Assembly (NCBI GenBank): GCA_963817525.1
Contig: CAWFOU010000001.1
Span: forward strand, 736,001 to 800,000
From: an uncultured archaeon
Lineage (GTDB): Archaea > Thermoproteota > Nitrososphaeria > Nitrososphaerales > Gagatemarchaeaceae
Direction: 5' to 3'
Length of the DNA: 64,000 nt
The translations under genes and the position numbers were made by a program. The notes under the pieces were generated by a model. That model saw only the letters and a program-made list of their open reading frames with translations. It searched no databases and was not told the DNA's origin. Shown here one piece after another: positions 39,427-62,166 of this stretch. Each line of letters starts with the position of its first letter. Position 1 is the first letter of the stretch.

Positions 39427-39475
39427 CAAATTCCACGTAAAAGCCCCTGAACAGGTGCAGCTCCTGGGCGGCCTA
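39427..39475 (+). repeat. Cassette boundary site 1 (class A, degenerate core)
   Basis: CAAATTCCACGTAAAAGCCCCTGAACAGGTGCAGCTCCTGGGCGGCCTA. Confidence 0.85.
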
Positions 39476-39617
39476 TTTTCTGTTGGCGCTCTGGTGGTGC
39501 CGAATGGAGTTCTGCTCCGGAGTGGGCACTTCTCGAGTCTTCCCGGTCCGACTCTGCCAAATCGAGTAAGGAGACTCTAACGTTCGGTTTTCGGACGCCT
39601 ACTCAGCTGATGGGATC

Positions 39618-40040
39618 CTACGTCGCTAATGGATCGACAAACTTCATCTCACGACTTTTGAACCGCAAGCTCTGAAGGCTCAGCAGATCCTGATCGTGGG
39701 TCAGCATCGTTTCGATTCCGTTCCTGAGGTAGCAACCTACAATCAGAGCGTCTCTTCCCCCCAAGTTGAGCTTTGTTCCCAAGTCCAACGAAAAAAGCGA
39801 AACCGTCTTGGTGAGATTGAAGAAGACTGTCCGCCGGTCCTTGACGAGCGTACGAAGTTTCAATCGCCCGTCTGCAGGTGACATTCCTCTCTTGAATACC
39901 AGGGTATGATATGATTCATGTACCACGGTAGGGTTTAGCGCCCAAGCTTGGGTTGACAAGATGGAGTCTCTAGCTTTCACGTGCTCGTCGGTTGTTGGAT
40001 CCAAGGCGTGGACTAGGATGCTGGAATCTATGCCATTCAC
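39618..40040 (-). CDS. vapC: VapC PIN toxin
   Basis: IDSSIL, VHE, GRDAL, THDQD. Confidence 0.88.
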   Translation of the reverse strand: MNGIDSSILVHALDPTTDEHVKARDSILSTQAWALNPTVVHESYHTLVFKRGMSPADGRLKLRTLVKDRRTVFFNLTKTVSLFSLDLGTKLNLGGRDALIVGCYLRNGIETMLTHDQDLLSLQSLRFKSREMKFVDPLAT

Positions 40041-40276
40041 TTAGCTCGCCAGATTTCTTTGATTTCATCTTCTTTGACCAGCTGCGGCTTCCTCGTTCTC
40101 TTAGGGTCCCAAGACATCGTCTCGCGGAGCGAATCCTCTGTTTCCTTTGCCTTTTTCACGGTGACAAAGCCCTTCTCCTTCTTGAACGTGACTACGCTGC
40201 CTTCCACTAGACCCAATTCATCGGCGATGTCCTTGGGTAGCACTACCCTTCTCTTGTCGTCCAGGATAGAGGTCAT
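40037..40276 (-). CDS. vapB: AbrB-type antitoxin
   Basis: LDDKRRVVLPK.I...LGL.EG. Confidence 0.88.
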   Translation of the reverse strand: MTSILDDKRRVVLPKDIADELGLVEGSVVTFKKEKGFVTVKKAKETEDSLRETMSWDPKRTRKPQLVKEDEIKEIWRAK

Positions 40277-40501
40277 GTCCCACCACATCCGGTGGGACAA
40301 ACTAATATGTGTTTAGGCGCTCCTGCTACCCGGCCAGAGCATCCACGACAGCCAGACCCTGGTCAAGGGTCCGATCAACGCCAACCATGAATACCCTCTC
40401 ACCATCTACGGCGCCCTCCCCCAGGAGGATTGATTTCTCCTATACAGTGATGATACAAATCTAGGCACCGAGTTGAAACTCAGCAGCACCTCAGAGGAGT
40501 G

Positions 40502-40551
40502 CAAATTTCCGCCTAATAGCCCCTAAACAGGTGCAGCCCCTGGATGGGCTA
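40502..40551 (+). repeat. Cassette boundary site 2 (class A)
   Basis: CAAATTTCCGCCTAATAGCCCCTAAACAGGTGCAGCCCCTGGATGGGCTA. Confidence 0.92.
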
Positions 40552-40798
40552 CCTATTTTGACCTCTATTGGTCAAAAGAGACAGCGTTGACGCTGTTACT
40601 AGGTAAAATGCCACAGATTCGGGTCATTTCACAACCAGAGCCACGAACTAGACGATTTCATCCTCACCGAGACAATGGATTCGAACCTTACTGAGGGATG
40701 AAGCCATCTCGAATCCGAAGAGGCCCGCCCCTGAACGCGTTTTCAAAGCGGATTCCGGGAAAGCTCTTGCCCACCCTATTCTTCCAAGTTGCAAGACT

Positions 40799-41134
40799 CT
40801 ACTTCGTAACACCTGGGTTCTTGGACATCAGCCATCGCTCGCCCCAGGACTTCATTTCGTATAGGGAATCGCTCAACTCGCGGCCCCTCTCAGTCAAGGA
40901 GTATTGGACTGAGATTGGCGATGTCTCCAAGACCCTCCTCTCGAGGATGTCTTGCTCTGCCAGGTGCTTGAGCGATCGTGAAAGCGTCTTGGAGCTCACG
41001 TTCCCCATCGCACGCCTGAGCTGGTTGTACTTCAAAGGCTCGTCATGAAGGTACCTGATAGCGATCATGTTCCATTGGTTGCCAAGCATCTTCATCGTCG
41101 CCACTGCAGGGCATATTGACGCATCGACGTGCAT
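40799..41134 (-). CDS. HxlR-family regulator
   Basis: Closely similar to 32934-33308. Confidence 0.9.
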   Translation of the reverse strand: MHVDASICPAVATMKMLGNQWNMIAIRYLHDEPLKYNQLRRAMGNVSSKTLSRSLKHLAEQDILERRVLETSPISVQYSLTERGRELSDSLYEMKSWGERWLMSKNPGVTK

Positions 41135-41302
41135 TGTCACCTCAGGTTTGTGTCGTGTTCTCCGTGTCGCCTTCTGTGTGATTTCGTTTAGAACCCTCCC
41201 TTTGTACTGCCTGGAGCCGGGGTCGCCACGCAGTGCCTGCATAACAATACGGTGCGGCTGAGGGGGCCGGCCGCCTTGCGAGCGATGGCTACCCAACCGG
41301 CA

Positions 41303-41935
41303 TCAACGTTCTGGCGCCGCATTTTCACGCCGCGGCAGGAGCATCAAGTCGGCCGCCTCTTCGGCATCCCTGAGAAGCGTCTTGCGCGGCGTGCCTATCA
41401 GCGCACCCATGGTAAGGCCACGAGCAAAATCAACGACCTGGCTTGCGCGGATGGCCACGGGAAAGTCGGACGGGATTTCGCCCGCGCTCATCGCGTCCCG
41501 GAAACGACCTTCCACTAGTCCTACGGCGTGAGCGGCCGCGTTCTGTAGGAACTGCCGGACCTCAGCATCGTTCACGAGCGGCGCGACGCACTCGAGAAGA
41601 CATCCGCGAGCTGATCCCTCCTGGGTCGCGGTTTCTACGGCGTTCCTCATGAAGGCGGCGAGCGAGTCGCGAAGAGTGCGCGGCGAGAGGAGTGCCTTCG
41701 CAGCGAGAGCCCCTTTCGTCTCTGCGTACGCCCTAAGGGCGCGCAAGAACAACGTCCGCTTGTCTCCGAAGACGGAATACAGGCTCGGCCGTCCCACGCC
41801 CATCCCTGCGACGAGGTCGTCGATCGTCACTCCGTCGTAGCCCTTCGACCAGAATACCTGGATCGCCTTTTCCAGCGCGAACCTCTCATCGAAGCTGCGC
41901 GGCCGTCCACGCGGCCTGGCGTCATTTTGCAACAT
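41303..41935 (-). CDS. TetR-family regulator
   Basis: RGRPRSFD, FWSKGY, SLYSVFGDK. Confidence 0.93.
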   Translation of the reverse strand: MLQNDARPRGRPRSFDERFALEKAIQVFWSKGYDGVTIDDLVAGMGVGRPSLYSVFGDKRTLFLRALRAYAETKGALAAKALLSPRTLRDSLAAFMRNAVETATQEGSARGCLLECVAPLVNDAEVRQFLQNAAAHAVGLVEGRFRDAMSAGEIPSDFPVAIRASQVVDFARGLTMGALIGTPRKTLLRDAEEAADLMLLPRRENAAPER

Positions 41936-42208
41936 TTAGTTTAAATCTCCTGGAGAAGGCCATCGCACCGATATAAAAACCGAATAGTTCGTAATTAGCA
42001 AGCTTACCCTGGCCTCGCGGGGCCTCACGACTCGACCTTCACCGTTTACCACGGAGGCGCCCATGGAACATTCGATCGCACTCGTCACCGGTCGGCGCAA
42101 AACGCCGGAAGGCCTACAAGATTGCCGAGTTCGTTGAGGGTGACTCACCGGTGCCGTCAACGCACTTAGCTCATCAGATCAAGTGTCGACGCATTTCGCG
42201 TACTGCTT

Positions 42209-42967
42209 TCAGAGTTGCGACGCACCGCCATCGACCGGAAGTTCGGCACCGGTGGTGAAGGTCGCGTCGAATGCGAGGAAGAGAACGGCCTTCGCAATTT
42301 CCTCCGGCATCCCAAAGCGCTTCATCGGATTAGTAGCGATCGCCTGCTCCCTGACATGGGCGGCCACGCCTTTCTCGGGAAACACTTTGCCGATGATCGG
42401 CGTGTCGATGGGACCGGGCGTTACCGCATTGACGCGAATCTCCCGAGGCAGAAGCTCAGCGGCGAGCACGCGAGCAAATGAGCGCAGCGCGGCCTTGGAC
42501 GCTGCGTAGGTCGCTTGGTTGGGACTTCCCTTGACGTTTGCGATGGAGGTCGTGAGGACGACGGCGCCCCCCCGGTTTATCAGCGGCGCGAACTTCTGCA
42601 CCGCGAAAAACGGTCCTTTGGCGTTCAGATCGAACATCTCGTCGTACATGGCCTCGGTCGTGTTTTCGAGAGGGGCAAAGAGGGCAAATCCGGCGTTGGC
42701 GAAGAGCAGGTCGAAGGTGCCGAACTCGGCCTTCACCCGAGAGGCGAGGGCGTCGATGTCCTTCAACGAGCGCGCGTCGCTGGGAACCACGATGGCGTCC
42801 TTTCCAATCTCTTTCTGCGCCGATTCCAGGCCGGCGTGTGACCGCCCCGTCACCAGAACACGCGCACCCCCATCGAGGAGCATCTTCGCCGTGGCGAGCC
42901 CGCTGCCGCTGGTGCCGCCAGTGATCACGACTTTCTTTCCTTGGTACCGTTCCATGTGAGTTGTCAT
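42209..42967 (-). CDS. Short-chain dehydrogenase/reductase
   Basis: TGGTSGSG, ANAG, YAASK, PGPIDT. Confidence 0.94.
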   Translation of the reverse strand: MTTHMERYQGKKVVITGGTSGSGLATAKMLLDGGARVLVTGRSHAGLESAQKEIGKDAIVVPSDARSLKDIDALASRVKAEFGTFDLLFANAGFALFAPLENTTEAMYDEMFDLNAKGPFFAVQKFAPLINRGGAVVLTTSIANVKGSPNQATYAASKAALRSFARVLAAELLPREIRVNAVTPGPIDTPIIGKVFPEKGVAAHVREQAIATNPMKRFGMPEEIAKAVLFLAFDATFTTGAELPVDGGASQL

Positions 42968-43045
42968 TGCGAGGTTAGGGTTGCTTTGCCTAATAATTAA
43001 CTGTTTAGTATGATAATCTCACGCGGAGGCCGCTGTCAAGGAATG

Positions 43046-43086
43046 TTTGAACTAGTTATTTCCATTTTGGAACTAGTTATTTCAAA
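43046..43086. promoter_or_regulatory. Tandem imperfect palindromes, putative TetR operator
   Basis: GAACTAGTTATTTC occurs twice upstream of the SDR gene. Confidence 0.5.
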
Positions 43087-43135
43087 ATACCTTAGGACCC
43101 CGAGACCTGCCGGGCCCGCCATCGGCCGAAGACTG

Positions 43136-43185
43136 CAAAATTCCACCTAAAAGCCCCTAAACAGGTGCAGCCCCTGGACGGGCTA
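43136..43185 (+). repeat. Cassette boundary site 3 (class A)
   Basis: CAAAATTCCACCTAAAAGCCCCTAAACAGGTGCAGCCCCTGGACGGGCTA. Confidence 0.95.
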
Positions 43186-43289
43186 ACTTATCTCCTCAAT
43201 TCCGCCTCTATTCGCGATTCTGAGCATAAATGAGGCCACGCTATCCCCAAGAGCGCATATTGTTGCCCTGAGATGAAATGCTGGACATA

Positions 43290-43317
43290 GGTTCTTTGCG
43301 CCTCCGCCGGGGCATTT
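43290..43317 (+). repeat. 28-bp direct repeat resembling the tRNA-Glu 3' end (second copy 44138-44165)
   Basis: GGTTC(T/A)TTGCGCCTCCGCCGGGGCATTT. Confidence 0.85.
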
Positions 43318-43356
43318 CGCTCGCACGCGAGCGCTCAGACACAATGGATTTCGTAA

Positions 43357-44031
43357 TTATCCGCAGGTGTTGTAGACAGTGTTGATTTCGCCGAAGATCC
43401 AAGTCTCGTTAGAGATGAGCCAAGCACCCCCGACATCGACATATGAGGCGCCCAACCTTACGCTTTCTGCCCAAGGTTGAGTAAGATTCGCACCGCTAGA
43501 AAAAGCCGTGATGGTAGGACCGGATTCGCTTCCCTGCGCGTTGAACGTAGAATTCACGGTAGTTTCCCCCTTGACATTTGCAAAGACTCCAGGGCTAAAG
43601 TCCGTGAAGTTCATGGTGCCGGAGCGTGTCGAGTTGAACATCACATGATACAAGATGTTGATGTTGTAGATACCTGCGTATGCCCCGCTAAAGCCGTTAG
43701 GACTGCATACGAGATTGAGCGTCGCGTTGCTTTCATATTGGGCAACCAGCGCAGTCACATTTTGTGACTGTTCGCTCTGGAGGTGAGCGGCAAAGGCGCT
43801 CATGACCTCCTGGCTGGAGTTAATCGTCAACGTGGTCGTGCTCACCATGATTGTAGTCTGCGTGTTTGTTTGGTCAACCGTCGTAGTAGTAGTTCTGATT
43901 GAACCTGGACTGACGAGAGAGTAGGCGATTCCCGCGCCGATCAGCAGTCCGACGAACAGCAGGGCGACGGCAGTACGACCGACAGCGCGATGAGCGGTCT
44001 TGCGGGCCATCCGAACGTCGGTCCTGAGCAT
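43357..44031 (-). CDS. Membrane-anchored protein with Thr stalk and possible NTF2-like domain
   Basis: TM segment, TTTTT tract, ...GGAWLISNETW. Confidence 0.7.
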   Translation of the reverse strand: MLRTDVRMARKTAHRAVGRTAVALLFVGLLIGAGIAYSLVSPGSIRTTTTTVDQTNTQTTIMVSTTTLTINSSQEVMSAFAAHLQSEQSQNVTALVAQYESNATLNLVCSPNGFSGAYAGIYNINILYHVMFNSTRSGTMNFTDFSPGVFANVKGETTVNSTFNAQGSESGPTITAFSSGANLTQPWAESVRLGASYVDVGGAWLISNETWIFGEINTVYNTCG

Positions 44032-44200
44032 ATGCCCGGCCCCATTAATACGGTTCGACAGAATGTTCGAGAGGCCCTGCCCGAGCTCCGCTACGCTTTG
44101 TCTAAAATGAAGTTGCAGGGCAATCGCCCATCATAAGGGTTCATTGCGCCTCCGCCGGGGCATTTACCCGTTTTCGCCCTGAACCCGACTATGGCAGCGC

Positions 44201-44250
44201 CAAATTCCCGCGTAAAAGCCCCTAATCAGGTGCAGCCCCTGGACGGGCTA
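44201..44250 (+). repeat. Cassette boundary site 4 (class A)
   Basis: CAAATTCCCGCGTAAAAGCCCCTAATCAGGTGCAGCCCCTGGACGGGCTA. Confidence 0.95.
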
Positions 44251-44477
44251 CCTATTTTAGCCTCTGTTTGCCTTATACGCCATGATTTACACTAATCCCT
44301 CGTAGAAAGCTTCAATTCGACTATATCACGATTCGATTTTCGGGACGACGCGTACCCAGCGCCGTCTTACGTGAGAGCCTACTCTCAATATTCATAAGAT
44401 TTCATAGTGCCGTGATTCTTAAAAATTGTTTCGTGAGCAACATCTCTATCCTTCGCCTTCTCTCTCCTACGACCAGC

Positions 44478-46988
44478 TCATGGCGAGGCAACACTGGCCG
44501 ATGGGGCGGGAGGGCTCTGAGGAAGCTGGACCTTCTTCGTTCCAGTGACTCCGACATCGCGATTCAGCCTCCCGTAGAATGGGACCTTCAAGAAGTCCGT
44601 AACGAGGAAGGATACCAACGTGTAACCCCAGACGAACCCTGCCAGCTTCCATCCCATTGCGGGAAGCAGGATGCCGTAGACCGTGATTATCGTCGCCGTC
44701 AGCTGCGTGAGTACGACCGCGAGGAGCAACACCTTCGCAGGCCTTACCGACCAGAATCGCCCCTTCGTCCTTGCCACAAAGAGCTCGAGGTGCCCGGCCA
44801 CGGAGAGCTTCAAGTATATGAACGACTGGAGGACGAGCGGGTTCAGGTGCAGGACGTCCAGCCCGATGATGAGTATCCCGAAGGACGACGCCGTCCCGAT
44901 GCCTCCCAGGAACGACGAGATTGTCAGGAGCGTGCGCATGTTCCACTTCTCGGGCTTCTTCGAGATCTTGACGTTGTCATAGGCTATCGTCATGATTGGC
45001 ATGTCGTTGAGGAGGGCCAGAAGGACAATCATCAGCGCTGTGACAGGATACAGCTGAAAAACGATGATCGAGAACGAGATGAAGAAGAGGACCCTGAACG
45101 TCTCGCTGATGCGATAGATCGCGTAGTTGGTCATGCGCTGGAATATCTCCCGGCTCGAGGTGACGGCGTCGATGATCACGGAGAGGCCGGGCTTCGTCAG
45201 GACCACGGCCGCGGCTGACTTCGCCGCGTCGGTGGCTCCCGCCACCGCTATCCCACAGTCGGCCTTCTTCAGCGCCGGGGCGTCGTTGACCCCGTCGCCG
45301 GTCATGCTGACGATGTGGCCCTTCTTCTGGAGGAGCTCGACGATCTTGTACTTGTGCTCAGGGAACACCTCGGCGAAGCCGTCGACGCCTTCTATCGCCG
45401 CCTCCGCTTCGCTATCCGACTTGCCGAGGATTGACGACGAGGTGACTATGTTGGTGCCCAGCCCCACCTCTCGGGCCACCTCCTTCGCGATGGCCACGTG
45501 GTCGCCGGTTACCATCTTGACGGTAATGCCCATGGACTGCGCGGTCTTGATCGTCGCGGCGGAGTCCTCCCGCGGCGGGTCGGTGAGCGCGACGAGCCCT
45601 ACGAACTTCCACTCCTCCCCGCCGTCGGTCTTGGCCACGCCGAGGGCCCGGTACCCCTTCTCGGCGAAGCCGACGACGTCTTGATTCACGGGGCCCTCGA
45701 CGCCCTTGTCGTGCACCAGAGCCAGGACGACCTGAGGCGCCCCCTTGGTCACCTGGAACCCGGGGCCGTCCTTGCCTTGGGCGGTCGCCTCTGTCCGCTT
45801 CGAGACGGGGTCGAACGGCTTGAACGATGAGACTTTGTAGCTCGATATCGAGGCGGGAACCCCGTCTAGGATCTTGGCCTTCGCGATGATCGCGTCATCG
45901 ATAGGGTCTTTGTCCTCGGCCCGCGAGGCTAGAGACGCGTACAGCAGGACATCGTTCACGGTGTACTTTTCGAAGGTCTTCATCTCGCCCACGGTAAGCT
46001 CGTTCTTCGTTATCGTGCCCGTCTTGTCCGCGCACAGGATGTCCACGCCGGCCATCTCGTCTATGGCGACCAGCTTGCTGACTATGGCCTCCTTCTTCGC
46101 GAGAGCCGACGCACCTACAGTCATGCAGACCGAGAGCACGGCCGGCATCGCCGCCGGGATTGCTGCGACGATGAGGACCAGCCCGAACTGTAGGATGTCG
46201 AGCGGCGCTTGGTTGCGCAGGAGCCCGACTATCGACGTGGCCGTCACCATCGCTATGGCGAGCGCGATGAGATAGTCGCCGATCTTCACCACCGCCCCTT
46301 GGAAGTGGCTCTTGGTGTGCGCCTCCTCGACCAGCCTCGTAGTCCGCCCGTAGAAGGTCTTCATCCCAGTAGTGACGACGAGCGCGTTCATCTCGCCCTG
46401 CCGGACGATCGAGGAGGAGAACGCGACGTCGCCCGAATGCTTCTCCACTGGCAGGGACTCCCCTGTCAGCGCCGATTCGTCGATCTGGAGGTACGCGCCG
46501 TCGACGAGCTTCGTGTCCGCTGGGACGATGTTGCCGAGTCGCAGGCGGACGATGTCCCCCGGTACGAGTTCCTTTGCGGGCAGGTCGGCCCACTTCCCGT
46601 CCCGCAGCACTTTTGCGGTGAGTGCCAGTCTCTTCTTCAGAAGCTCTATCTCGTTGTTGGCCTTGTTCTCCTGCCAGGACCTCACGATGACGTTCACGAC
46701 CAAGAGGGCGCCGATGATGACGAGGTCGTCCCAGTTCTTCAACACCGCCGAGATGACCGCCGCCGCCTCTATCATCCACGGAATCGGTCCCCAAAAATAG
46801 CGGAGGATAGCGACGATTGGGGCGCGCTTCTTCTCGGTTATCTCGTTCGCTCCGTACTGCTGGAGTCTATTGGCTGCTGCTGAAGCGGAGAGCCCTTTTT
46901 CGCTCGTCGCAAGTCTCTTGAACAGTTCCGCGATCGGAAGATCCTTTTCCTCAGCGGGAGTTACGTCGGTCAAGTCAGCTGCCCGCAC
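44478..46988 (-). CDS. P3A-type plasma-membrane H+-ATPase
   Basis: YFWGPIPWMIEAAA, TGES, IPAAMPAV, DKTGT, KGAP, TGDGVNDAP, LLND. Confidence 0.94.
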   Translation of the reverse strand: MRAADLTDVTPAEEKDLPIAELFKRLATSEKGLSASAAANRLQQYGANEITEKKRAPIVAILRYFWGPIPWMIEAAAVISAVLKNWDDLVIIGALLVVNVIVRSWQENKANNEIELLKKRLALTAKVLRDGKWADLPAKELVPGDIVRLRLGNIVPADTKLVDGAYLQIDESALTGESLPVEKHSGDVAFSSSIVRQGEMNALVVTTGMKTFYGRTTRLVEEAHTKSHFQGAVVKIGDYLIALAIAMVTATSIVGLLRNQAPLDILQFGLVLIVAAIPAAMPAVLSVCMTVGASALAKKEAIVSKLVAIDEMAGVDILCADKTGTITKNELTVGEMKTFEKYTVNDVLLYASLASRAEDKDPIDDAIIAKAKILDGVPASISSYKVSSFKPFDPVSKRTEATAQGKDGPGFQVTKGAPQVVLALVHDKGVEGPVNQDVVGFAEKGYRALGVAKTDGGEEWKFVGLVALTDPPREDSAATIKTAQSMGITVKMVTGDHVAIAKEVAREVGLGTNIVTSSSILGKSDSEAEAAIEGVDGFAEVFPEHKYKIVELLQKKGHIVSMTGDGVNDAPALKKADCGIAVAGATDAAKSAAAVVLTKPGLSVIIDAVTSSREIFQRMTNYAIYRISETFRVLFFISFSIIVFQLYPVTALMIVLLALLNDMPIMTIAYDNVKISKKPEKWNMRTLLTISSFLGGIGTASSFGILIIGLDVLHLNPLVLQSFIYLKLSVAGHLELFVARTKGRFWSVRPAKVLLLAVVLTQLTATIITVYGILLPAMGWKLAGFVWGYTLVSFLVTDFLKVPFYGRLNRDVGVTGTKKVQLPQSPPAPSASVASP

Positions 46989-54125: not shown

Positions 54126-54202
54126 TCGTCAGGGAACACCGTTGGAGCTGCCTTGGGAAGTATTGCATGAAGTAACGAGCTGTCCGCCCCGACGGGCAGA
54201 AT

Positions 54203-54241: not shown

Positions 54242-54274
54242 ACTTGTTAGCTCAAAGCCTGTCGATTGGCTACC

Positions 54275-54646
54275 TTACATGACCCGGACTTTTGACTTTG
54301 GGAGAAACTTCAGGAAATCCTTGTCGCCAGTCCAGACCGTTGCGCCATACCTCTTGGCAGACGACGCAATAAGCGCGTCCAAGAGGTCTTCCTTGGTTGG
54401 CTTCATCCTCGCGGCTTCTTCTGCATCTGCCCTGATGAAAGGTGCGACCTCGACTCCCGCAATCTCGAGAAACTTGTCATAATTTGCTGAAGACATCTTG
54501 GCTGTGAAATATCCCCACAGGATTTGGAGGTGGCTTATCGCTGAGACATAGAGTTGTAAGCCTGTTCCCGACACCCGGAGCATCTCCGCGCGAGTGCTCT
54601 CCCTCTTCTCGTCGCTAAGAATCGAAGTGTCTAGAAAGACCTTCAA
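54275..54646 (-). CDS. vapC: VapC PIN toxin
   Basis: FLDTSIL, DALIA, TGDKDF. Confidence 0.88.
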   Translation of the reverse strand: MKVFLDTSILSDEKRESTRAEMLRVSGTGLQLYVSAISHLQILWGYFTAKMSSANYDKFLEIAGVEVAPFIRADAEEAARMKPTKEDLLDALIASSAKRYGATVWTGDKDFLKFLPKSKVRVM

Positions 54647-54887
54647 TCAAACCAGACCTCGCTTGCCTGATGTGGCTCTTGATCTTGCTCATGTCCCCGG
54701 CTAGGTTGTCAAGCGCCGCCAGAACCATTTCCACATCAACGTCAGAACCAGAGACCTTCTTGATCATGATCCGTTCGTCTCGCGTCTCCTCGAACACCAC
54801 GCTGTCCCCTGGCTTGATCCCGGTCCTCTCGGCGATCCTCTTTGGAATTGTCACCTGCATCTTCCGCGTGACTTGGTACTGCCTCAT
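54615..54887 (-). CDS. vapB: AbrB-type antitoxin
   Basis: VTRKMQVTIPK.I....GIKPGD. Confidence 0.9.
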   Translation of the reverse strand: MRQYQVTRKMQVTIPKRIAERTGIKPGDSVVFEETRDERIMIKKVSGSDVDVEMVLAALDNLAGDMSKIKSHIRQARSGLIEGLSRHFDS

Positions 54888-54995
54888 AGTACTACTTTCT
54901 TACTGTCAGCTGGTATAAAAAGACCCACCCCAGTCGTGGCATGAAAGCCAGGTTGCTCGGCATAGAGGGACTTGCGGCCCTCGGTCATGCGAGCA

Positions 54996-55045
54996 CAAAT
55001 TTCCGGCTAAAAGCCCCTAAACAGGGTCAGCCCCTGGACGGGCTA
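54996..55045 (+). repeat. Cassette boundary site 10 (class A)
   Basis: CAAATTTCCGGCTAAAAGCCCCTAAACAGGGTCAGCCCCTGGACGGGCTA. Confidence 0.93.
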
Positions 55046-55199
55046 TTCGCTCAATTGCGCCTCCGTTGACCGAACGCCGCAGTAATCTTACTATAATGTG
55101 CGTTTAGCGGTCACAACCTATCTGTCAAATCTGTGAGCAAAAGAAACCTTGGCAATGGCGCACATAATATTTATAAGCACGCATATTATATGCATGCAT

Positions 55200-55586
55200 A
55201 TGCAATCCGAAATAAGGTACAAGTTGGGAATGATAACTCTGTTCTGTAGACACGTTGCCGAGACTAAGAGTTTCTACATCAATAAGCTGGGGCTGACTGA
55301 GATAAGAGAAATGACCTCACCTACTTTCGCCACTTTGATGACCAACGGGGGCAGCTTGATAGGTCTGCAAGATGTCAAGACGTCTCTGGGTGGACAAACG
55401 AGTACTCACGGTGAAGTGGAACTTGGACTAGAAGTCGAGGATGTCGACGCGACATACGAGAAGTGGAAGGAAAACAACTCTGAAGTGACCTCGCCTCCTG
55501 TCGATCTCCCCTTTGGGCGCACCTTTCAGGGAAAGGACCCTGAGGGACATCTGCTTCGGATATACAATACAAAGAAGCGTCAGTAG
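55200..55586 (+). CDS. VOC/glyoxalase family protein
   Basis: FY...LGL, VEDVDA.Y, PFG.....DPEG. Confidence 0.9.
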   Translation: MQSEIRYKLGMITLFCRHVAETKSFYINKLGLTEIREMTSPTFATLMTNGGSLIGLQDVKTSLGGQTSTHGEVELGLEVEDVDATYEKWKENNSEVTSPPVDLPFGRTFQGKDPEGHLLRIYNTKKRQ

Positions 55587-56044
55587 TGGTGATAACAACG
55601 AAGCGAGAGGATACGAAATACTGGATTATCGTCGCATCCAGGGACCACGTTCAAAGAGGCGTGGAGGAAGGCATCTGTCAGACCTGTCACGGTAGGGGGG
55701 CACCATTGAGGAGGATGAGTGAGGGAGACTGGGTCGTATTCTATTCATCGAAGGAAAGATATGATGGTGTTGAGAAGTGCAGGAAATTCACGGCAATCGG
55801 GAAAGTTAAGAATGACCTTGTCTATCAGGTTCGAATGAACGAAGATTTCGCTCCTTTCCGTCGGAGTGTAGAGTTCTTTCCCTCCTCGGAGGTCCAGATT
55901 GAGCCGCTGATTCCATTTCTTTCTTTCATCGCGAACAAGAAGTCATGGGGATACGTATTCAGGTTCGGCCTGACCCAGATTCCCAGAAACGATTTCCTGG
56001 CGATTGCTTCGAGAATGCTTCCGGCCCTTCAGGAGGTAGTTTAG
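55586..56044 (+). CDS. EVE-domain protein
   Basis: YWI.VASRDHV, CHG, GD.VVFYS, WG..FRFG. Confidence 0.88.
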   Translation: MVITTKREDTKYWIIVASRDHVQRGVEEGICQTCHGRGAPLRRMSEGDWVVFYSSKERYDGVEKCRKFTAIGKVKNDLVYQVRMNEDFAPFRRSVEFFPSSEVQIEPLIPFLSFIANKKSWGYVFRFGLTQIPRNDFLAIASRMLPALQEVV

Positions 56045-56048
56045 GGGA

Positions 56049-56546
56049 TTGGAGGGCAAACGCCCGGTCAAGTTTTCCAAGGCAAGGCCCGAGGAGAGCC
56101 CGGGTTACATGTTCTGGCAGACGAGCAATCTGTGGCAGCGGAAGATGGTCAAGGCGCTGAAGCCTACAGGCCTGACGCCTGTGCAGTTAGTTCTCCTGGC
56201 GGGGGTGGCCTGGCTCGAACGGGGATCCGAGCCAATAAGCCAAGTCAGGTTGGCCCGTCAGGCAAAGACCGACGTGATGATGACCTCTCAGGTACTCAAA
56301 AAACTGGAATCTAGGGGGCTGGTGAGCAAGAGACCAAGTGAATCAGATACCAGAGCTAACGCCATCACATTGACAGAAAAGGGGGCAGAGAAGGTCGCGA
56401 AAGCATTGATAATCGCGGAGAAAGTTGACTCGGACTTTTTCCAGCCTTTGGAAGGGAAGCATGACGAGTTCCTGACGGCGCTGGGAGCATTGACCAAAGC
56501 AAACGACCATGAGGGAACAAAAAATGACATTTCACCACAAGAATAG
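56049..56546 (+). CDS. MarR-family regulator
   Basis: SPG...WQ, GLT.VQ, DTRA..I.LTEKG. Confidence 0.9.
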   Translation: MEGKRPVKFSKARPEESPGYMFWQTSNLWQRKMVKALKPTGLTPVQLVLLAGVAWLERGSEPISQVRLARQAKTDVMMTSQVLKKLESRGLVSKRPSESDTRANAITLTEKGAEKVAKALIIAEKVDSDFFQPLEGKHDEFLTALGALTKANDHEGTKNDISPQE

Positions 56547-56642
56547 TTCTTGCAAGGAGAGCTCAAGTCGGCCGCCGCCTCGTGGGTTCGTCACCTGTCA
56601 TCGTGACTTCCGATGGCCCGCCACCTAAACATCACGATGTGT

Positions 56643-56681
56643 GGATTCGCACTTGAATAGGTGCGGCCCCTGGACGGGCTA
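56643..56681 (+). repeat. Cassette boundary site 11 (class B)
   Basis: GGATTCGCACT-TGAATA-GGTGCGGCCCC-TGGACGGGCTA. Confidence 0.92.
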
Positions 56682-56716
56682 TCTTCTTAATTCTAACTTG
56701 GCGTGGGGCGTGTCGC

Positions 56717-57193
56717 ATGGCCGCAGTTCGGAAGAAGAAGGCGTACGAGAAGTATGCTTGGGTAATCCCATTCGTGATGGGGCTATTTTTCATGCTCTCG
56801 ATGGCCGTGACCTTCCTTTCGCCAGTAATCCTCACCGGTGCCGAGGGCGCCGTCGAGAGCCTCACAGGACTGACGTTTTCCCAGTTGGCCGCGTCGAATC
56901 CAGGCGTCGCCAACTACATTTACCATCTCATCAGAATCCTCGCGATCTTCAGCTCAGGTCTCGGGGCCTTCTTCGCGGTCGTATCGGCGACGGCCTACAG
57001 GAGGGGAGAATTGTGGGCCTGGTACCTGACGTAGGTCGTCCCCGTGCTCTTCCTGCTCGACATTGCCAATGACTATGTCGCGTTTGGATATGTGGACGTT
57101 AGTTCGATGTTCATTGTCGCGATTTTGGTCCTTGGTCTCCTCCTACCCTACAGAAAGTTCTTCCCCATGAAGCAGCCTTCGGACGCTTCATAG
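56717..57193 (+). pseudogene. Four-TM membrane protein with in-frame TAG at 57032
   Basis: Hydrophobic frame continues after the stop (..WAWYLT*VVPV..LLLPYRKFF). Confidence 0.7.
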
Positions 57194-57232
57194 CCGGTAT
57201 CGCCTTCGCGGGCGCCTGCGCCCTGCCAAGAT

Positions 57233-58217
57233 CTAGGCACGGGGACTCTCGTGGCCAATCGTGATGACCACGTTTCCTGCCTTCTTCCCTGTGTCCACAT
57301 ACGCGTGAGCCTCTGCGATCCTTTCCAGAGGATACTCCCTATCGATCACTGACCTTACCTTTCCGGATTCGATGAGGTCTTTCAGGAAGGCCATGTCTTC
57401 GGGCTTGTACGAGGCCGCCCCGCCGATCACTCTCTTGCCTCCCGAACCTAATAGCTTTCGAAGAAGTTGCGACAATCCCGGGTTCCCCATGAGATAGAAT
57501 CCGTTCTCCTTTGTCGACCTCAAGCATGTGGAGAAGGGAGCCTTGCCGATGACGTCAAAGATGACATCGTATGTCTCGCCGTTCTCACCAAAGTCGTCCT
57601 TGGCATAGTCTATGACCTTGTCTGCGCCTATGGACCGGAGCATGTCCAGTTTTCCGTCCGAGTCGACCGCCGTCACTTCCGCCCCTGACGACTTGGCAAT
57701 CTGCACGGCAACGGTGCCTATGCTCCCGCCAGCCCCGATGATCAAGACCTTCTGTCCCATCTGGATTTTCGCCATTCTGAGGAAGTGCACCGCGTGCAGC
57801 CCCCCAAGGGGCATCGCCGCAGCTTCTTCGTAGGTCATGTTGGGAGGTTTCGTCGATATCAGTCCCTTTGCGGGCAGGCAGTCATATTCAGCATAGGCGC
57901 CCAGGTGGAAGCCGGTCAGAGCGAAGACCTGGTCGCCCGCTTTGAACCTGCTGACGTTTGTGCCCACAGATTCGACCTCTCCGGCCAACTCTTGCCCCAA
58001 GATTGCCCTTCTCGGTCCTCGCAACCCAAACCCTATTCGCGCTGCCAGCCACAACAAGATGGGCATCTTGAATCTTCGAATCTCGCAGTCCCCCCATAGT
58101 CACCGTTGTCGCGTGAACCCTGACCAGCACTTCATCGGCCTTGGGTCTGGGTGTCTCGACCTCTCTGAGCTGAAGGACCTCAGAAGGCCCATATCTCGTG
58201 CACACTACTGCTTTCAA
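57233..58217 (-). pseudogene. MDR/quinone oxidoreductase-like protein, frameshifted near 58090
   Basis: MKAVV..YG; GAGGSIG, GNVVI in a second frame. Confidence 0.8.
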
Positions 58218-58338
58218 CTGATGAAACGCGATTGCCGTCCGCCCCTATATGGGGTCGGTCCTCTCCCGGCTGTCGCCCATGCCGAGCCTTTTGAGAGTCG
58301 TCTGCCTTTGTGGAATCTAGATTTTCCCTAGAGCAGAT

Positions 58339-58377
58339 GGATTCGCGCCTATTCAGGAGCAGCCCATGGACGAGCTA
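58339..58377 (+). repeat. Cassette boundary site 12 (class B, degenerate)
   Basis: GGATTCGCGCC-TATTCA-GGAGCAGCCCA-TGGACGAGCTA. Confidence 0.85.
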
Positions 58378-58596
58378 TTTCCGCTCGCGCGGTAGGGACT
58401 GCTGGATAGAGTTCTCCTCCGGAGTGGGGACTTTTCGAGTATGCCAAGTCCGAGTGAGGAGATTCTGGCCCTAAGCATTCGGCCTTCAAAGTCCTACTCA
58501 GCTTGGGATTTTGTGTCGCTAACGCATCGACGAACTTCGTCTCACGATCTTTGAACCGCAACCCCTGGAGGCTTACCAGCAGCCTACGAGCTCACT

Positions 58597-59580
58597 TTAC
58601 GATACTCCCGGAGTGACTGACGTTACAACCGAAGTTGCGGTTGTTACGGGCGTTGCAATGGCCGCTGCCGCGCCTGGTATCATGTCGAATGTCTCATATA
58701 CTGTGATCTCCCCTTCTCTCACTTCAATGATGGAACCCTCCAGCGGCCTCAAGGTGTCCGGGATGTGGAAGTGTAGCTCTCCGCCTAGCGGGAGTTGAAC
58801 CTCGTACTTAGGAGCCCCATTACCGTCGATGGTGAAGAGTCGCTCCCCTTTGCAGTACACGGTGCACAGCTGTAGCTGCCTGTTGCGTCCTTTGACAACG
58901 AGTGCAAACTCGCTGGCAGGATAGGGCGACACGACTGGCTCTCTTATGACTTCCAGCGTGATGTCTAGGTACAGCTTCATATCCGTGAGGACCATCACCT
59001 GATCGCCCGTCTTGACCTCGGCTCCCTCCTCGTCGTTGGGGTAGACGACGAAACGGCCCGCTCCCGTTACCCTCTCGATCCTTCCTTTGACGATCTTTGA
59101 CTCGGAGGTTATGACCGTCGTACCGTCTTTCTGAACCACCTCCATTATGGGCTGTTCCAGTTTGACTCCTTGCGCGGCGGCGGTCGGGCTCATCGCGACG
59201 AAGTCATCAATCTTCTTCAGTATCTTCTTCTCAACCTCCACGTTCCAAAGCATCTCCCCGACATCAAGGGGCAGGAATAGTTCAGAAATCAGCAGAGTCT
59301 CTACGGTGGCGACGCCTATGTTCTGGACCCATTTGCCTATCCCCACCCTTACCGAGAAGTTGTTCGGCTCCCCCTGGATCAGTATATCGAGAGCCCTTTC
59401 AGAAGTAATTACTTCCCTGAGGAAACCGCCCTTCTGTGCCTGTATCAACATGCCTCCCTGAGTGGCCCTCGGGGTTTGGAGCTTGAAACCATCATCCTGG
59501 AGATAACGGACTATGCGGTCCCTAAGTCCGACCAGATCGGTATTTCTTCCTTGATATCGGACAGTCTTGTCGGCTAACAT
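58597..59580 (-). CDS. Hypothetical protein, probably two domains
   Basis: 327-aa ORF with normal composition; no motif recognised. Confidence 0.65.
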   Translation of the reverse strand: MLADKTVRYQGRNTDLVGLRDRIVRYLQDDGFKLQTPRATQGGMLIQAQKGGFLREVITSERALDILIQGEPNNFSVRVGIGKWVQNIGVATVETLLISELFLPLDVGEMLWNVEVEKKILKKIDDFVAMSPTAAAQGVKLEQPIMEVVQKDGTTVITSESKIVKGRIERVTGAGRFVVYPNDEEGAEVKTGDQVMVLTDMKLYLDITLEVIREPVVSPYPASEFALVVKGRNRQLQLCTVYCKGERLFTIDGNGAPKYEVQLPLGGELHFHIPDTLRPLEGSIIEVREGEITVYETFDMIPGAAAAIATPVTTATSVVTSVTPGVS

Positions 59581-59662
59581 GCTCTCTGGCCACCATTGAT
59601 ATCAACGGCTAAGTGCATCTAGCAACAATCTTCTAGAATGAAAGGCCGAGCCCTCGAGAGTC

Positions 59663-60412
59663 TCATTTCCACTTTGTTAGTATCTCTTCCCTCTTGAAGG
59701 TGGCGATGCTCAGATAGAAGAGGAGCAGGTCTGCCACCAGGAAAATGCCTGACATGATGAGCAGATTGATCGTGGTCAATTGAATCACCCCGATCTCCGT
59801 CAGCACGTAGATGATGAAGAAGGGGAAGACCATCACTCCGGTTATCTGCTGCACGCTTCGAACGTCGTTGGCGCGTGCGGATAGGATGACGGTCAGCTCG
59901 ACTGAGAGAATGCTAGCGAGCGGCGCGAGGACGAGTAGGCTCACTCCGAAGCTCCAGTTTGGATAGTAGAGATAGCCTAGCCCGGCGTGAGTGACTAGGT
60001 CTATCAGGACCATGAAGACTACCGAGCTAGCCCAGATCGCGGCAATCGGCGGGATGAACGAAGCGATGCTCTTTCCCAGCAGAATCTCACCGTCCGTCAT
60101 GGGAGTTGCAAGCAGCGGTTCGAGGCTCTTCTGGATCTTCTCGCCGACTATACTGTACGAGGCAATTCCAGCCGGGAGACTCGCCGCTAAGATCACATAC
60201 CAAAACGAAAACGCGTTCAGAAACGGGGCAACGGATGCTGATATGGCCCCTGTGCCAGCGACGCTTTCGATCGCAACAAGTACCGCGGGAAATCCCAATG
60301 CAACACCGAATGGGGACACCATCGTAGCGTAGAGGACCCCCTTCCTCCTCTTGAAAATCTCAAAATCCTTCGACGCGACCGACCACGCGTTCTGCAGGTC
60401 CACTTCTCTCAC
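59663..60412 (-). CDS. ABC-2 family permease (copy 3)
   Basis: VGEKIQKSLEPLLATP...REEILTKWK. Confidence 0.88.
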   Translation of the reverse strand: MREVDLQNAWSVASKDFEIFKRRKGVLYATMVSPFGVALGFPAVLVAIESVAGTGAISASVAPFLNAFSFWYVILAASLPAGIASYSIVGEKIQKSLEPLLATPMTDGEILLGKSIASFIPPIAAIWASSVVFMVLIDLVTHAGLGYLYYPNWSFGVSLLVLAPLASILSVELTVILSARANDVRSVQQITGVMVFPFFIIYVLTEIGVIQLTTINLLIMSGIFLVADLLLFYLSIATFKREEILTKWK

Positions 60413-61329
60413 TGGCTCCTGACCAGTTTCAGGTACACGTCCTCCAGGGTCGAACTCGCCTCCGTGACGAACTGGATACGGCCTCCCGCGGTTACGATTG
60501 CACTCATAATGTCAGGGTTCTCCTTCTCAGGATCACCCACCCCTATGACGAGCTTGTTGCCCTCGCCCACCTCGACGCCTCCGGTTGCGACCATCTTCGC
60601 TGCAGATATGATCACGTTGTTGACGCTCTCGAGCTTGACCACAATCTTCCGGCCGCTGGCCGACCGTTCGAGGTCTGCCGGGGTGCCCAGGGCCATCAGC
60701 TTGGTGTTCAGAATCGCGATCCTGTCGCAGATCCTCTGTGCCTCGTCGAGATTGTGCGTGTTGAGGAAGATGGTCTTCTTCTCCTTCTTCAGGTCGAGTA
60801 TGAAGTCCCTGACCGTCTTGGACGCTTCCGGGTCGAGGTTGGCAGTAGGCTCGTCCATGAACAAGACCTGCGGATCGTGAATGAGAGCGCGCGCTATGGC
60901 GAGCTTCTGCTTCATCCCCTTGGAGAAGGTTCCTGCCGCCAGATCCTTCTTATCCCATAAACCAAGCAGCTTGAGGAAGTATTCTATCCTCTCACTTCTC
61001 TTCGGTTCTTCGACCTTGTAGTATCTGCCGTAGAAATCCAAGTTCTTGTACGCGGTGAGTTCCTCGTACAGACCAACGTTGTCCGGAACCAGTCCTATGA
61101 CTCTCCTGATTTTTGGTTGATCTGAGCTTTTTCCGATGTCGTATTCCCCAATCTTGGCGGTACCGCTCGTCTTCGATATCAGACATGTCAGCATTCGTAC
61201 AGTGGTGGTCTTCCCGGCGCCATTGGGTCCGAGAAACCCGAAGACTTCCCCATCGTCGACGCGGAGGGTAAGATCGTCGACTGCAGTAAGGTCCCCGAAC
61301 TTCCTCGTAAGGTTCTCGGTCTCAATCAA
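60409..61329 (-). CDS. ABC ATPase (paralog of 50279-51202)
   Basis: GPNGAGKT, FSKGMKQK, MDEPT. Confidence 0.93.
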   Translation of the reverse strand: MIETENLTRKFGDLTAVDDLTLRVDDGEVFGFLGPNGAGKTTTVRMLTCLISKTSGTAKIGEYDIGKSSDQPKIRRVIGLVPDNVGLYEELTAYKNLDFYGRYYKVEEPKRSERIEYFLKLLGLWDKKDLAAGTFSKGMKQKLAIARALIHDPQVLFMDEPTANLDPEASKTVRDFILDLKKEKKTIFLNTHNLDEAQRICDRIAILNTKLMALGTPADLERSASGRKIVVKLESVNNVIISAAKMVATGGVEVGEGNKLVIGVGDPEKENPDIMSAIVTAGGRIQFVTEASSTLEDVYLKLVRSQ

Positions 61330-61413
61330 CTTGAGTTGGTTTCGACTGTCCGCGAGATGTGATATATGAATTGAGGCACAGTATGGAAGCCTGACCACTC
61401 TAGTCGACCCCGC

Positions 61414-61452
61414 GGATTCGCACCTTGTTGGGTACCGACCCCGTCCGGCCTA
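61414..61452 (+). repeat. Cassette boundary site 13 (class B, strongly degenerate)
   Basis: GGATTCGCACC-TTGTTG-GGTACCGACCC-CGTCCGGCCTA. Confidence 0.65.
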
Positions 61453-61483
61453 TCGCTCCCTGTTCCCGATACAGCGGACCGCT

Positions 61484-61996
61484 TCAGCGCAGTCTCTTGA
61501 CCATGAATCGAAGTGCCACCTTGGCGCCTCCGACCCTCTCTACAGCCTTCCCGGACTCGGTGAATCCGGCCTTTCTGTAGAAACTGATTGCCCTCTCATT
61601 GGTCGCTTCCGTCTTCACGCGGACGGAATAGAACCCGCGCTTCCTCGCCGAGTCAAGGGCCTTGCGGAGGAGCCTCGATCCGACCCCCTTTCCGGTCGCA
61701 CCTTCCAGCACCGCTATGCCTGAGAGCTCCCCTTCCCTCGCTTCAACCTTTCTTATGCTGGAGAAGCCGATGATTCTTCGTTCCTCCTCAGCAACCATCA
61801 TCTGGATGGTGGGGGTGGCAAGTCTCTTTTTCAAGAACTCCTCGGAGGCGATTTCCCTGATTGCTCCATCCGTGGCCCCCGCGAACCCAAGCGCGCTGGC
61901 TCCCGCCTCCTTCCACGCCTCGACTAAGAAGACGGAAAGCTTCGAGACGTCGTTTGGTCTCGCTGGTCTTATCACAAGAGAGGTTGGTTTCTCCAT
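61484..61996 (-). CDS. GNAT acetyltransferase
   Basis: GKGVGSRLL, N.RA..FY.K.GF. Confidence 0.9.
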   Translation of the reverse strand: MEKPTSLVIRPARPNDVSKLSVFLVEAWKEAGASALGFAGATDGAIREIASEEFLKKRLATPTIQMMVAEEERRIIGFSSIRKVEAREGELSGIAVLEGATGKGVGSRLLRKALDSARKRGFYSVRVKTEATNERAISFYRKAGFTESGKAVERVGGAKVALRFMVKRLR

Positions 61997-62145
61997 CCTC
62001 AGAGGGTCAGGCGGCGGTTTCGCAACCAAACTGGGCCATCATAAGCCTCTCCGGAATTAAGGATTCTGACGGTCGAAGGGCACAAGTCCAAGAAAACCAC
62101 CGGTATGCTGTCCGATTCGACGCATTCAGGGCTAACTTGGAGACC

Positions 62146-62166
62146 AAACAGCCCCTGGACGGATAA
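62146..62166 (+). repeat. Cassette boundary site 14 (partial)
   Basis: AAACAGCCCCTGGACGGATAA. Confidence 0.65.

Follow-up and report, generated by a model that had tools for sequence, protein, structure and literature searches.

The window analysed here is a stretch of 64,000 nucleotides from an uncultured archaeon of the family Gagatemarchaeaceae (GenBank assembly GCA_963817525.1, contig CAWFOU010000001.1, positions 736,001 to 800,000 of the forward strand), and the subject of this work is an array of small gene cassettes that begins at a tRNA-Gln(CTG) gene. This tRNA gene, identified with ARAGORN at 37832-37904 on the + strand, is intact and scores 57.2 bits with the Rfam tRNA model. Repeat and core scans of the window detected 15 co-oriented sites, all on the + strand and all downstream of the tRNA gene. 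Each site, approximately 40-50 nt in length, copies the 3' half of tRNA-Gln in diverged form and terminates in the 13-mer CCTGGACGGGCTA, which forms the last 13 nt of the tRNA itself (37892-37904, +). Between them the sites enclose 14 cassettes with genes, each 0.7-3.5 kb long, and the end of the array is near position 62251. The cargo is self-contained and is found on either strand, consisting of toxin-antitoxin pairs, regulator-enzyme pairs, and transporters. We consider it probable that the locus is a tandem stack of small integrase-less gene cassettes at the tRNA-Gln 3' end, and that a tyrosine integrase provided in trans reshuffles them by site-specific recombination.

Recombination sites

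Three classes of left arm (A, B, and C) were distinguished, one more than had been recognized in the original prediction, an earlier reading of the same sequence. The class A arm is CAAATTCCCGCCTAAAAGCCCCTAAAC-AGGTGCAGCC, the class B arm is GGATTCGYACCTAATC-AGGTGCRGCC, and the class C arm is GGGACAAATCGWACC-N10-GAAT, which appears as GGGACAAATCGAACC...GAAT before the core. Sites are numbered from the tRNA outwards, each of sites 1-14 closing the cassette of the same number. Class A sites have their cores at 39463-39475 (site 1; arm from 39426, 2 core mismatches), 40539 (site 2; 1 mismatch), 43173 (site 3; 0), 44238 (site 4; 0), 47759 (site 5; 1), 49291 (site 7; 1), and 55033 (site 10; 0). Class B sites, in which the arm GGATTCGYACC is followed by the core, have arms starting at 52700, 54203, 56643, 58339, and 61414 and cores starting at 52726 (site 8; 0 mismatches), 54229 (site 9; 0), 56669 (site 11; 0), 58365 (site 12; 2), and 61440 (site 13; 4), respectively. 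Class C sites were found at 48.5 kb (site 6; arm from 48521, core at 48549, 1 mismatch) and at 62.2 kb, where a decayed copy occupies 62211-62251 and retains the first 7 nt at the core position (62239-62251). Site 14 is a core-like sequence at 62154-62166 that has 3 mismatches and an unclassifiable arm. Cores with 0-2 mismatches are thus those of sites 1-12, while those at 61440, 62154, and 62239 are more decayed.

A search of the window with the class A arm motif, allowing up to 2 mismatches, gave 8 matches against 0.26 expected, all on the + strand, and none of 100 shuffled sequences reached 8. Seven of these matches are the class A sites given above, and the eighth (48536) belongs to a class C site. 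A probable decayed class B arm, the core of which is gone, adjoins the tRNA end of the array at 39369-39394; approximately 19 of its 26 arm positions agree with the class B consensus in a hand count on printed sequences. Motifs resembling GGATTCGAACC at 40677, 43484, and 52869 were examined as further class B sites and rejected, as the 28 nt that follow them are at chance level (19-21 mismatches to the consensus).

In manual alignments, the arms of all three classes can be aligned end to end with the 3' half of the tRNA, starting at the anticodon arm and running through the discriminator base to the 3' end. Terminal identity to the tRNA extends over 17 nt in class C and 13 nt in classes A and B, and the differences between arms and tRNA cluster in the T loop. 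An interpretation of class A as a minihelix mimic of the tRNA acceptor and T-arm was discarded, both because this end-to-end alignment explains the arm better and because its folds are weak. Rfam identified only the tRNA. A loose consensus, tCTCCTCAATTC...GCTCTGTTT, is present in many right arms and in the tRNA's own downstream flank, and class A arms hold stop codons in several frames. The G+C content of individual cassettes is 0.51-0.61, compared to 0.61 in the first 37 kb of the window. Within the whole 2.82-Mb genome, arm-plus-core sites were found only at this array and at C1:83.3-85.5 kb.

Ordered small cassettes with their own site at the 3' end, a cargo rich in toxin-antitoxin pairs and acetyltransferases, and probable reshuffling by a tyrosine recombinase are also features of integrons, and clusters of attC sites lacking an integrase (CALINs) are common in archaeal integrons according to the available part of the preprint describing them (bioRxiv 10.1101/2022.02.06.479319). 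That the array is an integron remnant of this type is nevertheless hardly credible. Its sites are derived from a tRNA, and when nine of them (82 nt each) were folded as single-stranded DNA no strong hairpin was obtained (z -1.36 to +0.25, with 17-112 of 200 shuffled sequences folding equally well). In addition, the genes are found on both strands with their own regulators, and the docking point is a tRNA gene in place of attI or intI. A term search of the same preprint returned neither Thaumarchaeota nor tRNA.

Cassettes shared between arrays

Approximately 12 arrays were examined: that of the window, a second locus in the same genome, arrays in G015 (two), G017, G022, G030, G031 (two), and G034, and those of metagenome contigs L061 and L066. 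One genome per species was compared, and nucleotide identity of the arginyl-tRNA synthetase (ArgRS) gene between species is approximately 75-83%. Of 23 genomes in the genus, 7 have co-oriented clusters of the exact core and 9 have the core at all; genome G033 has kept the neighbourhood of tRNA-Arg, ArgRS, and tRNA-Gln without an array. Within the family, 11 of 97 genomes contain the class A arm, and in a second genus the core tracks the local tRNA-Gln end (for example, CCTAGCCGGGCTA). When 185,579 species were searched with the three arm patterns, matches were restricted to metagenome-assembled genomes (MAGs) of this genus, apart from one class A match in a MAG labelled Nitrosopumilales.

The second locus of the genome is a tRNA-Gln(UUG) gene at C1:83290-83445 (L015:7290-7445), which carries an intron and was missed by ARAGORN as a tRNA-Gln, the program's -i option reporting only a spurious intron-containing tRNA-Glu over the same end. 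A 27-nt duplicate of this gene's own 3' end, with 4 mismatches, is located 48 nt downstream, ahead of a vapBC cassette, and is followed by class A and class C sites. The vapBC cassette is a recent copy of cassette 7 of the window (742 nt), to which it is 98.95% identical. Cassette 7 is the most widely shared of all: blastn located it in six arrays of five species at 84-99% identity, ending at cores in each case (G034, 95%; G031, 93%; G017, 90%; G022, 84%), and it is also present in five further metagenome contigs. At the left junction, homology starts at the GGGCTA of the upstream core (alignments A1 and A2), and the arms upstream of that point are unrelated to each other, being class C, tRNA-like, B, A, and degenerate A-like. 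At the right junction, homology includes the class A arm and the core belonging to the cassette and goes no further. These end alignments indicate that the site at the 3' end is part of the cassette it closes, and that the exchange point is inside the core.

The units might instead be the remains of full-size integrase-bearing elements that decayed in place, so that cassettes never move alone. Such an origin is the one stated for cis-mobilizable elements (CIMEs) in the available sections of PMC5704250, loss of the integrase is known for archaeal elements (PMC8371274, in the part available), broken genes and decayed sites are present in the array, and no helper element was found. On balance this seems improbable, since independent decay would not yield a 742-nt cassette with the same two ends in six arrays of five species with differing neighbours, and a nearly identical copy is located at another tRNA gene of the same genome. 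Moreover, not one integrase fragment was found among 155 open reading frames (ORFs), and none was detected by tblastn.

Another possible route to the same arrangement is general homologous recombination between conserved sites of 40-180 nt, with no site-specific enzyme involved. Sites 2, 4, and 7 do share 137-180 nt at 64-88% identity (repeat families D4 and D14), and module exchange between tandem archaeal elements has been proposed (PMC8371274, available sections). We judge this to be very improbable, because the arms upstream of the shared vapBC cassette differ in class and only the core, 13 nt at most, is common to them, a length that does not suffice for such exchange, and because all sites have a single orientation and a single register with the tRNA end.

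Other cassettes also reassort as discrete units. At the tRNA-Gln(UUG) locus, the second cassette matches cassette 6 at 86% identity, and its order relative to cassette 7 is reversed there. Cassette 13, encoding an ATP-binding cassette (ABC) transporter, holds the first position after the tRNA in the G031 C3 array and the second position in that of G030. Four cassettes of the window are also present in contig L061 at 85-94% identity, partly reordered, and L061 is missing cassette 8 between its vapBC and epimerase cassettes. The site class was constant for each cassette in the six families checked across arrays (6/6); the vapBC cassette is class A-ended in 6 of 6 genome arrays, the ABC-transporter cassette class B-ended in 5 of 5, and the esterase cassette class C-ended in 2 of 2. 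Cassettes with homologues in other arrays are those at ranks 3, 5, 6, 7, 8, 9, 10, and 13, those at ranks 1, 2, 4, 11, and 12 have none, and that at rank 14 is common to G034 only as a gene outside the G034 array.

Four soil sequencing runs of one study contain 40-62% of the sampled words, in the same arrangement as the window, and contigs of reads from these runs bridge sites 4, 5, 7, 8, and 10 exactly as in the window. The sample from which the genome came may be among these runs. Two joints, 37904>48545 and 49286>52725, were considered as possible deletions or excision products and rejected, as both match the second tRNA-Gln locus.

Gene content of the cassettes

Family assignments within the array were made with Pfam. 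Cassette 1 (37905-39475, +) encodes a 436-aa protein without a family match (38052-39362, +) and contains the decayed class B arm described above. Cassette 2 (39476-40551) carries a vapBC pair on the - strand, composed of a PIN-domain toxin (39618-40040) and an AbrB/MazE-type antitoxin (40037-40300). Cassette 3 (40552-43185) encodes an HxlR regulator (40799-41296), a TetR regulator (41303-41935), and a short-chain dehydrogenase/reductase (SDR; 42209-42967), all on the - strand; its TetR-SDR part (41226-43185) is 93% identical by blastn to a stretch of a G031 array, the similarity terminating exactly at the core. A 224-aa protein of unknown function (43357-44031, -) is encoded in cassette 4 (43186-44250), and a P-type ATPase (44478-46988, -) in cassette 5 (44251-47771). 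Cassette 6 (47772-48561) holds a broken esterase gene (47786-48541), which is split over three frames in comparison to a 257-aa copy at the second tRNA-Gln locus. In cassette 7 (48562-49303), the AbrB-type antitoxin is encoded in ORF 48501-48845 and the PIN toxin at 48823-49245, both on the + strand; as the antitoxin ORF begins before the cassette boundary, its true start must be downstream.

Cassette 8 (49304-52738) encodes an ABC-2 permease (49533-50282, -), an ABC ATPase (50279-51202, -), a 278-aa protein of unknown function (51469-52305, +), and a helix-turn-helix protein (52298-52657, +). The first 57 residues of the 278-aa protein match positions 26611-26781 of the window at 65% identity. 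Cassette 9 (52739-54241) includes an epimerase gene without its N-terminus (53003-53704, -) and a MarR regulator gene (53639-54004, +). It is 87-88% identical to its counterpart in L061, where the cassette is approximately 280 nt longer and the epimerase has 283 aa, compared to 233 aa here. Cassette 10 (54242-55045), which is 94% identical to an L061 cassette, carries a further vapBC pair (PIN, 54275-54646; AbrB-type, 54615-54887; both -). Cassette 11 (55046-56681) encodes a glyoxalase (55149-55586), an EVE domain protein (55586-56044), and a MarR regulator (56049-56546), all on the + strand. The zinc-type alcohol dehydrogenase (ADH) gene of cassette 12 (56682-58377) is located at 57233-58066 (-) and is probably frameshifted, as judged from overlapping ORFs and a partial ADH_N match.

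Cassette 13 (58378-61452) contains a vapC remnant at 58514-58579 that retains only the last 22 of 140 residues, a gene for a 327-aa protein of unknown function (58597-59580, -), and the genes for an ABC-2 permease (59663-60412, -) and an ABC ATPase (60409-61398, -). The ABC-2 pairs of cassettes 8 and 13 (49533-51209 and 59663-61336) are 10,127 nt apart and 73-78% identical at the nucleotide level, and both of these separate cassettes are class B-ended. Cassette 14 (61453-62166) encodes a GNAT acetyltransferase (61484-62029, -), a homologue of which, 76% identical, is located in G034 (L035:6694-7241) outside the array and beyond a conserved flank gene. The array is completed by a terminal unit of 85 nt (62167-62251) that contains the decayed class C site; it had previously been thought to end at 62166. 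The flank at 62423-63698 is homologous by blastn to the DNA directly after the last site of G034. Pfam also identified ArsR-type regulators, beside the MarR, HxlR, and TetR types, among the window ORFs between 33.5 and 63.7 kb. A second low-GC stretch (0.48-0.59) is present at 24000-35000, upstream of tRNA-Arg and ArgRS.

Search for a recombinase

No recombinase family was detected by Pfam among 40 window ORFs between 33.5 and 63.7 kb or among 115 ORFs from the arrays of relatives, and PHROGs and NCBIfam identified none among 14 array and flank ORFs without a family. With six integrases of this genome as queries, tblastn gave no match in the region 37.9-62.3 kb, and neither tblastn nor Pfam identified an integrase between ArgRS (35381-37306) and the right flank. 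On the array contigs of G015, G030, G031, and G034, no PF00589 match was found near the array. The array ORFs of the window and its relatives include no integrase, primase, helicase, or polymerase family, and no transfer gene or decayed mobility gene was seen in the units. Elements of the Sulfolobus spindle-shaped virus (SSV) type with a 'suicidal' integrase were rejected, since no integrase similarity was found at any junction by Pfam or tblastn. Non-autonomous elements of the IS200/IS605 type were likewise rejected for the lack of strong hairpins and of a Y1 transposase (PF01797, 0 matches in the genome), and a serine recombinase is also absent from the genome.

The genome does hold at least 8 tyrosine-integrase-like genes, among them six PF00589 integrases on other contigs and more distant relatives of these. 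The only tblastn match within the window is a 407-aa integrase-like gene at 164-1387 (-), located 36 kb from the tRNA, which is Pfam-negative, matches PHROG 1 'integrase' with an E value of 5e-7, and encodes a protein 27-29% identical to two integrases of the genome. It was rejected as the array enzyme because no close orthologue is present in any array-bearing relative. The most conserved integrase of the genus, I1 (C7:342483-343757 in this genome), lies directly after the glnA stop codon and shows 86-97% protein identity in four relatives, which made it a candidate for a conserved enzyme acting in trans. It too was rejected, as it belongs to an element at glnA and the glnA loci of G033, G030, and G015 are without it. 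The region C7:329129-343816 (locus L055) is an insertion that extends from I1 to a 12-nt repeat of the glnA end 14.7 kb away, and is probably a cryptic element targeting the glnA 3' end. ORF 62556-63710, considered as a hidden recombinase, was dismissed because it belongs to the conserved right flank, present in G034 only, has paralogues elsewhere in the genome, and has no family match.

A Pfam-negative integrase-like family is represented by six copies (C7:144749-146154, C1:1153292-1154743, C7:999623-1001038, C7:691826-693190, C7:987753-988580, and C7:84174-84731), one of which is 97% identical between this genome and G031. A core-like 13-mer inside one copy was found to be coincidental, as it encodes a conserved D-G-L motif. 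A frameshifted copy of this family (L043:8604-10200) lies outside the G031 C2 array, 4.5 kb past its proximal end, and this was the single case among the approximately 12 arrays in which an integrase-like gene lies within 5 kb.

If cassettes are indeed moved at the tRNA-Gln end by an integrase acting in trans, as we consider probable, each would begin just past a copy of the tRNA's last bases and terminate in its own site of approximately 40-50 nt, belonging to family A, B, or C. Conservative site-specific recombination would account for insertion, loss, and movement, a cassette's site recombining either with the end of the tRNA or with any site already in the array, presumably through circular intermediates. 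Exchange would take place within the 13-nt core, such that its first 7 bases stay attached to the upstream unit and both sides share GGGCTA. Most likely, a tyrosine integrase encoded elsewhere would be responsible, and its source could be a helper element that uses the same tRNA as its integration target, leaves the chromosome together with neighbouring units, and is missing from the host genome most of the time. The system may still be active today.

Several observations weigh against this explanation. No cognate integrase was found for the array: of 8 integrase genes checked in the genome, none has a tRNA-Gln-like site within 15 kb, and none of the six copies of the Pfam-negative family has a convincing one within 6 kb. 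No integrase is common to all array-bearing genomes, and the single integrase of G034, a genome of three contigs, is the one belonging to the glnA element. The class A, B, and C patterns had 0 matches in a viral collection, and no free or integrase-bearing element with these arms was encountered there. Contigs assembled from the soil runs, which are of low depth, come from one study, and have rare variants dropped, contain no circular or empty-site junction. Any present-day activity is therefore putative, and the decay of the distal sites and of several genes means that part of the array is fossil.

Order of sites and age of cassettes

The original prediction interpreted the array as a chronological record, in which the tRNA is the sole point of entry, older cassettes are displaced outwards by new ones, position reflects age, and classes A and B correspond to two lineages or recombinases of different times. 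Several features of the window agree with this. Class A sites dominate near the tRNA, with one more at 55.0 kb, as had been predicted, and the ranks of class A (1-5, 7, and 10) and class B (8, 9, and 11-13) give an exact one-sided p of 4/792 = 0.005, although this test is post hoc. The last four sites carry the most core mismatches, mismatches to the class B consensus rise with distance (3, 4, 5, 5, and 11 of 39), and metagenome contig L066 likewise has a series of A sites followed by B. The first cassette is different in 8 of 8 tRNA-anchored arrays, and an outward push is the published model for tycheposon islands.

The finer claims were borne out only in part. Class B was said to be distal only, and the five full class B sites are indeed at 52.7-61.4 kb, yet the decayed class B arm at 39369 adjoins the tRNA. 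Sites 12-14, described as the last and most degenerate, have 2, 4, and 3 core mismatches against 0-1 at sites 2-11, but the array continues to the decayed site at 62239; the degenerate core noted for site 1 (2 mismatches) was verified. Rather than a gradient, decay shows a step at the distal end, as the Spearman correlation of mismatches with rank is 0.40 (p 0.14) for all sites and -0.59 for sites 1-11. Of five broken genes reported, four of them beyond 52.7 kb, the esterase, vapC, and epimerase genes were verified and the ADH gene is a probable case, while the count of five was not reproduced.

Comparison of arrays is harder to reconcile with a dated series, which we therefore think unlikely. 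The existence of distinct cassette lineages was confirmed, in that the arm class is a property of the cassette preceding the site, but for the same reason two recombinases active at different times are not indicated: class is intrinsic to the cassette across arrays and does not belong to a period. The order of classes is reversed in the G031 C2 array (tRNA-like, B-like, C, B, an unclassed site with a tRNA-like GAAT end, C, A, A), and in G034 (B, A, unclassed, B) class B is found at both ends, the unclassed site there having been script-tagged as A without possessing the class A arm motif. In G017, five full sites are class A and two decayed class B arms are found among them. The most decayed sites are tRNA-proximal in both G034 (3 mismatches) and G017 (5 and 2), just as site 1 and the decayed class B arm lie beside the tRNA here, and class A arm divergence in the window peaks at site 1 (8/37) and site 5 (9/37). 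There is no trend of cassette GC content with rank (rho -0.08, p 0.78). Since homologue-bearing cassettes are spread over ranks 3, 5-10, and 13, the distal cassettes are not the shared ones; cassettes with and without homologues have the same mean rank. In comparison with L061, the window has one additional cassette inside the array and another in a changed relative position.

Cassette entry at the tRNA followed by an outward push is an established model for tRNA islands and fits the distal decay, whereas the ordered time record built on it is unsupported. The comparison drawn with attI and with the CRISPR leader fails as well, there being no integrase beside any array. The distal decay is real and is compatible with an old distal end, but it does not turn the array into a chronological record; the presence of the same cassettes in other orders in related species points to a swap site for accessory genes.

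Comparison with known integrated elements

Work on integrated archaeal elements includes She et al. 2001 ('gene capture in archaeal chromosomes'), and the survey of integrated elements in Thaumarchaeota was reportedly seeded on integrases. Like a tRNA island, the array has direct repeats of the tRNA 3' end and an intact tRNA at one end. An integrase of its own, as is expected of an integrative element, is present neither in the window nor in the arrays of relatives. According to the available sections of PMC6563490, the att sites of Thaumarchaeota are short (median 17 bp), and archaeal elements can integrate in tandem, some of them without an integrase (PMC8371274, available part). The array resembles these elements in its tRNA target, short core, tandem reuse of one site, and lack of an integrase, which they show occasionally. 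It differs from the integrase-carrying and other full-size element classes of the survey, as far as its available text describes them, in being a multi-unit stack of integrase-less cassettes of approximately 1 kb, and arrays of this kind are not described in the available portions of either PMC6563490 or PMC8371274.

Parallels are also found in bacteria. CIMEs, as set out in the available sections of PMC5704250 for the ICESt1/ICESt3 model in Firmicutes, are att-flanked elements without mobility genes, derived from decayed integrative and conjugative elements (ICEs) or integrative and mobilizable elements (IMEs) and stacked by accretion. The units described here are similarly bounded by sites, without recombinase or transfer genes, stacked at the target gene's end, and probably reliant on the integrase of an incoming element. 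CIMEs, however, are decayed elements that usually occur one or two per site, whereas the archaeal array has up to 15 units of 0.07-3.5 kb and no trace of decayed integration or transfer genes, and the same unit has identical ends in several species, which makes the cassette itself appear to be what moves. The tycheposon islands of Prochlorococcus (bioRxiv 10.1101/2020.12.28.424599, available sections) are also tRNA-anchored, with partial tRNA copies between units, adaptive cargo, and arrivals that are proposed to push older ones outwards. An integrase and, in most cases, a replication module are part of a tycheposon, and fragmented integrases occur in the islands, whereas the array units are without either. 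The array is a variant of tandem accretion, of CIMEs, and of tycheposon islands, and it works like an integron or a CIME stack while being a member of neither group. A literature search, with supplements outside its scope, found no account of this array type in Thaumarchaeota, and in the main text of the Gagatemarchaeaceae genomics paper (PMC10640624) the words integrase, mobile genetic element, genomic island, and toxin-antitoxin do not occur.

Other tRNA loci

Repeats of tRNA ends are also found elsewhere in the genome. In the window, the last 14 nt of tRNA-Glu(CTC) (9240-9314, -) recur with 1 mismatch 1,048 nt downstream (approximately 8192-8205) in a low-GC patch (0.55 at 7-9 kb), and this locus resembles a single-unit form of such an insertion. 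Four more tRNA genes (Arg-CCT, Ser-GGA, Leu-GAG, and Ile-GAT, at C8:68666-77388, C1:963931-976103, C7:390933-393514, and C7:1045843-1054179) have 1-3 downstream copies of their last 14 nt with 0-2 mismatches, 1-11 kb apart, Arg-CCT having 3 exact copies. No known integrase was found near these four repeat sets. Units bounded by tRNA ends may be a genome-wide habit.

Conclusions

The non-ammonia-oxidising soil Thaumarchaeota are abundant and uncultured, and the locus described here is a concrete route by which these organisms acquire and exchange accessory genes such as those for transporters, oxidoreductases, regulators, and toxin-antitoxin pairs. Tandem reuse of tRNA att sites, short thaumarchaeal att cores, and integrated elements without an integrase are already in print (PMC6563490 and PMC8371274, in their available parts); what is new is the scale, the three families of tRNA-derived sites, and the clear reassortment of cassettes among the members of a soil archaeal genus. 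Methods that detect elements by their integrases cannot find units as small and bare as these. If its enzyme is found, the short tRNA-end core together with the 40-nt arm would constitute a compact archaeal recombination system. It is possible, and we put it forward only tentatively, that the array is a tRNA-based counterpart of the integron: a genus-wide pool of cassettes, tagged with degenerate tRNA-Gln 3' halves, would be captured and reshuffled at tRNA-Gln genes by an unlinked or transient tyrosine recombinase, and the five other tRNA repeat sets of this genome would be further cases. Should that be true, integrase-seeded surveys would be overlooking a whole layer of archaeal gene exchange.

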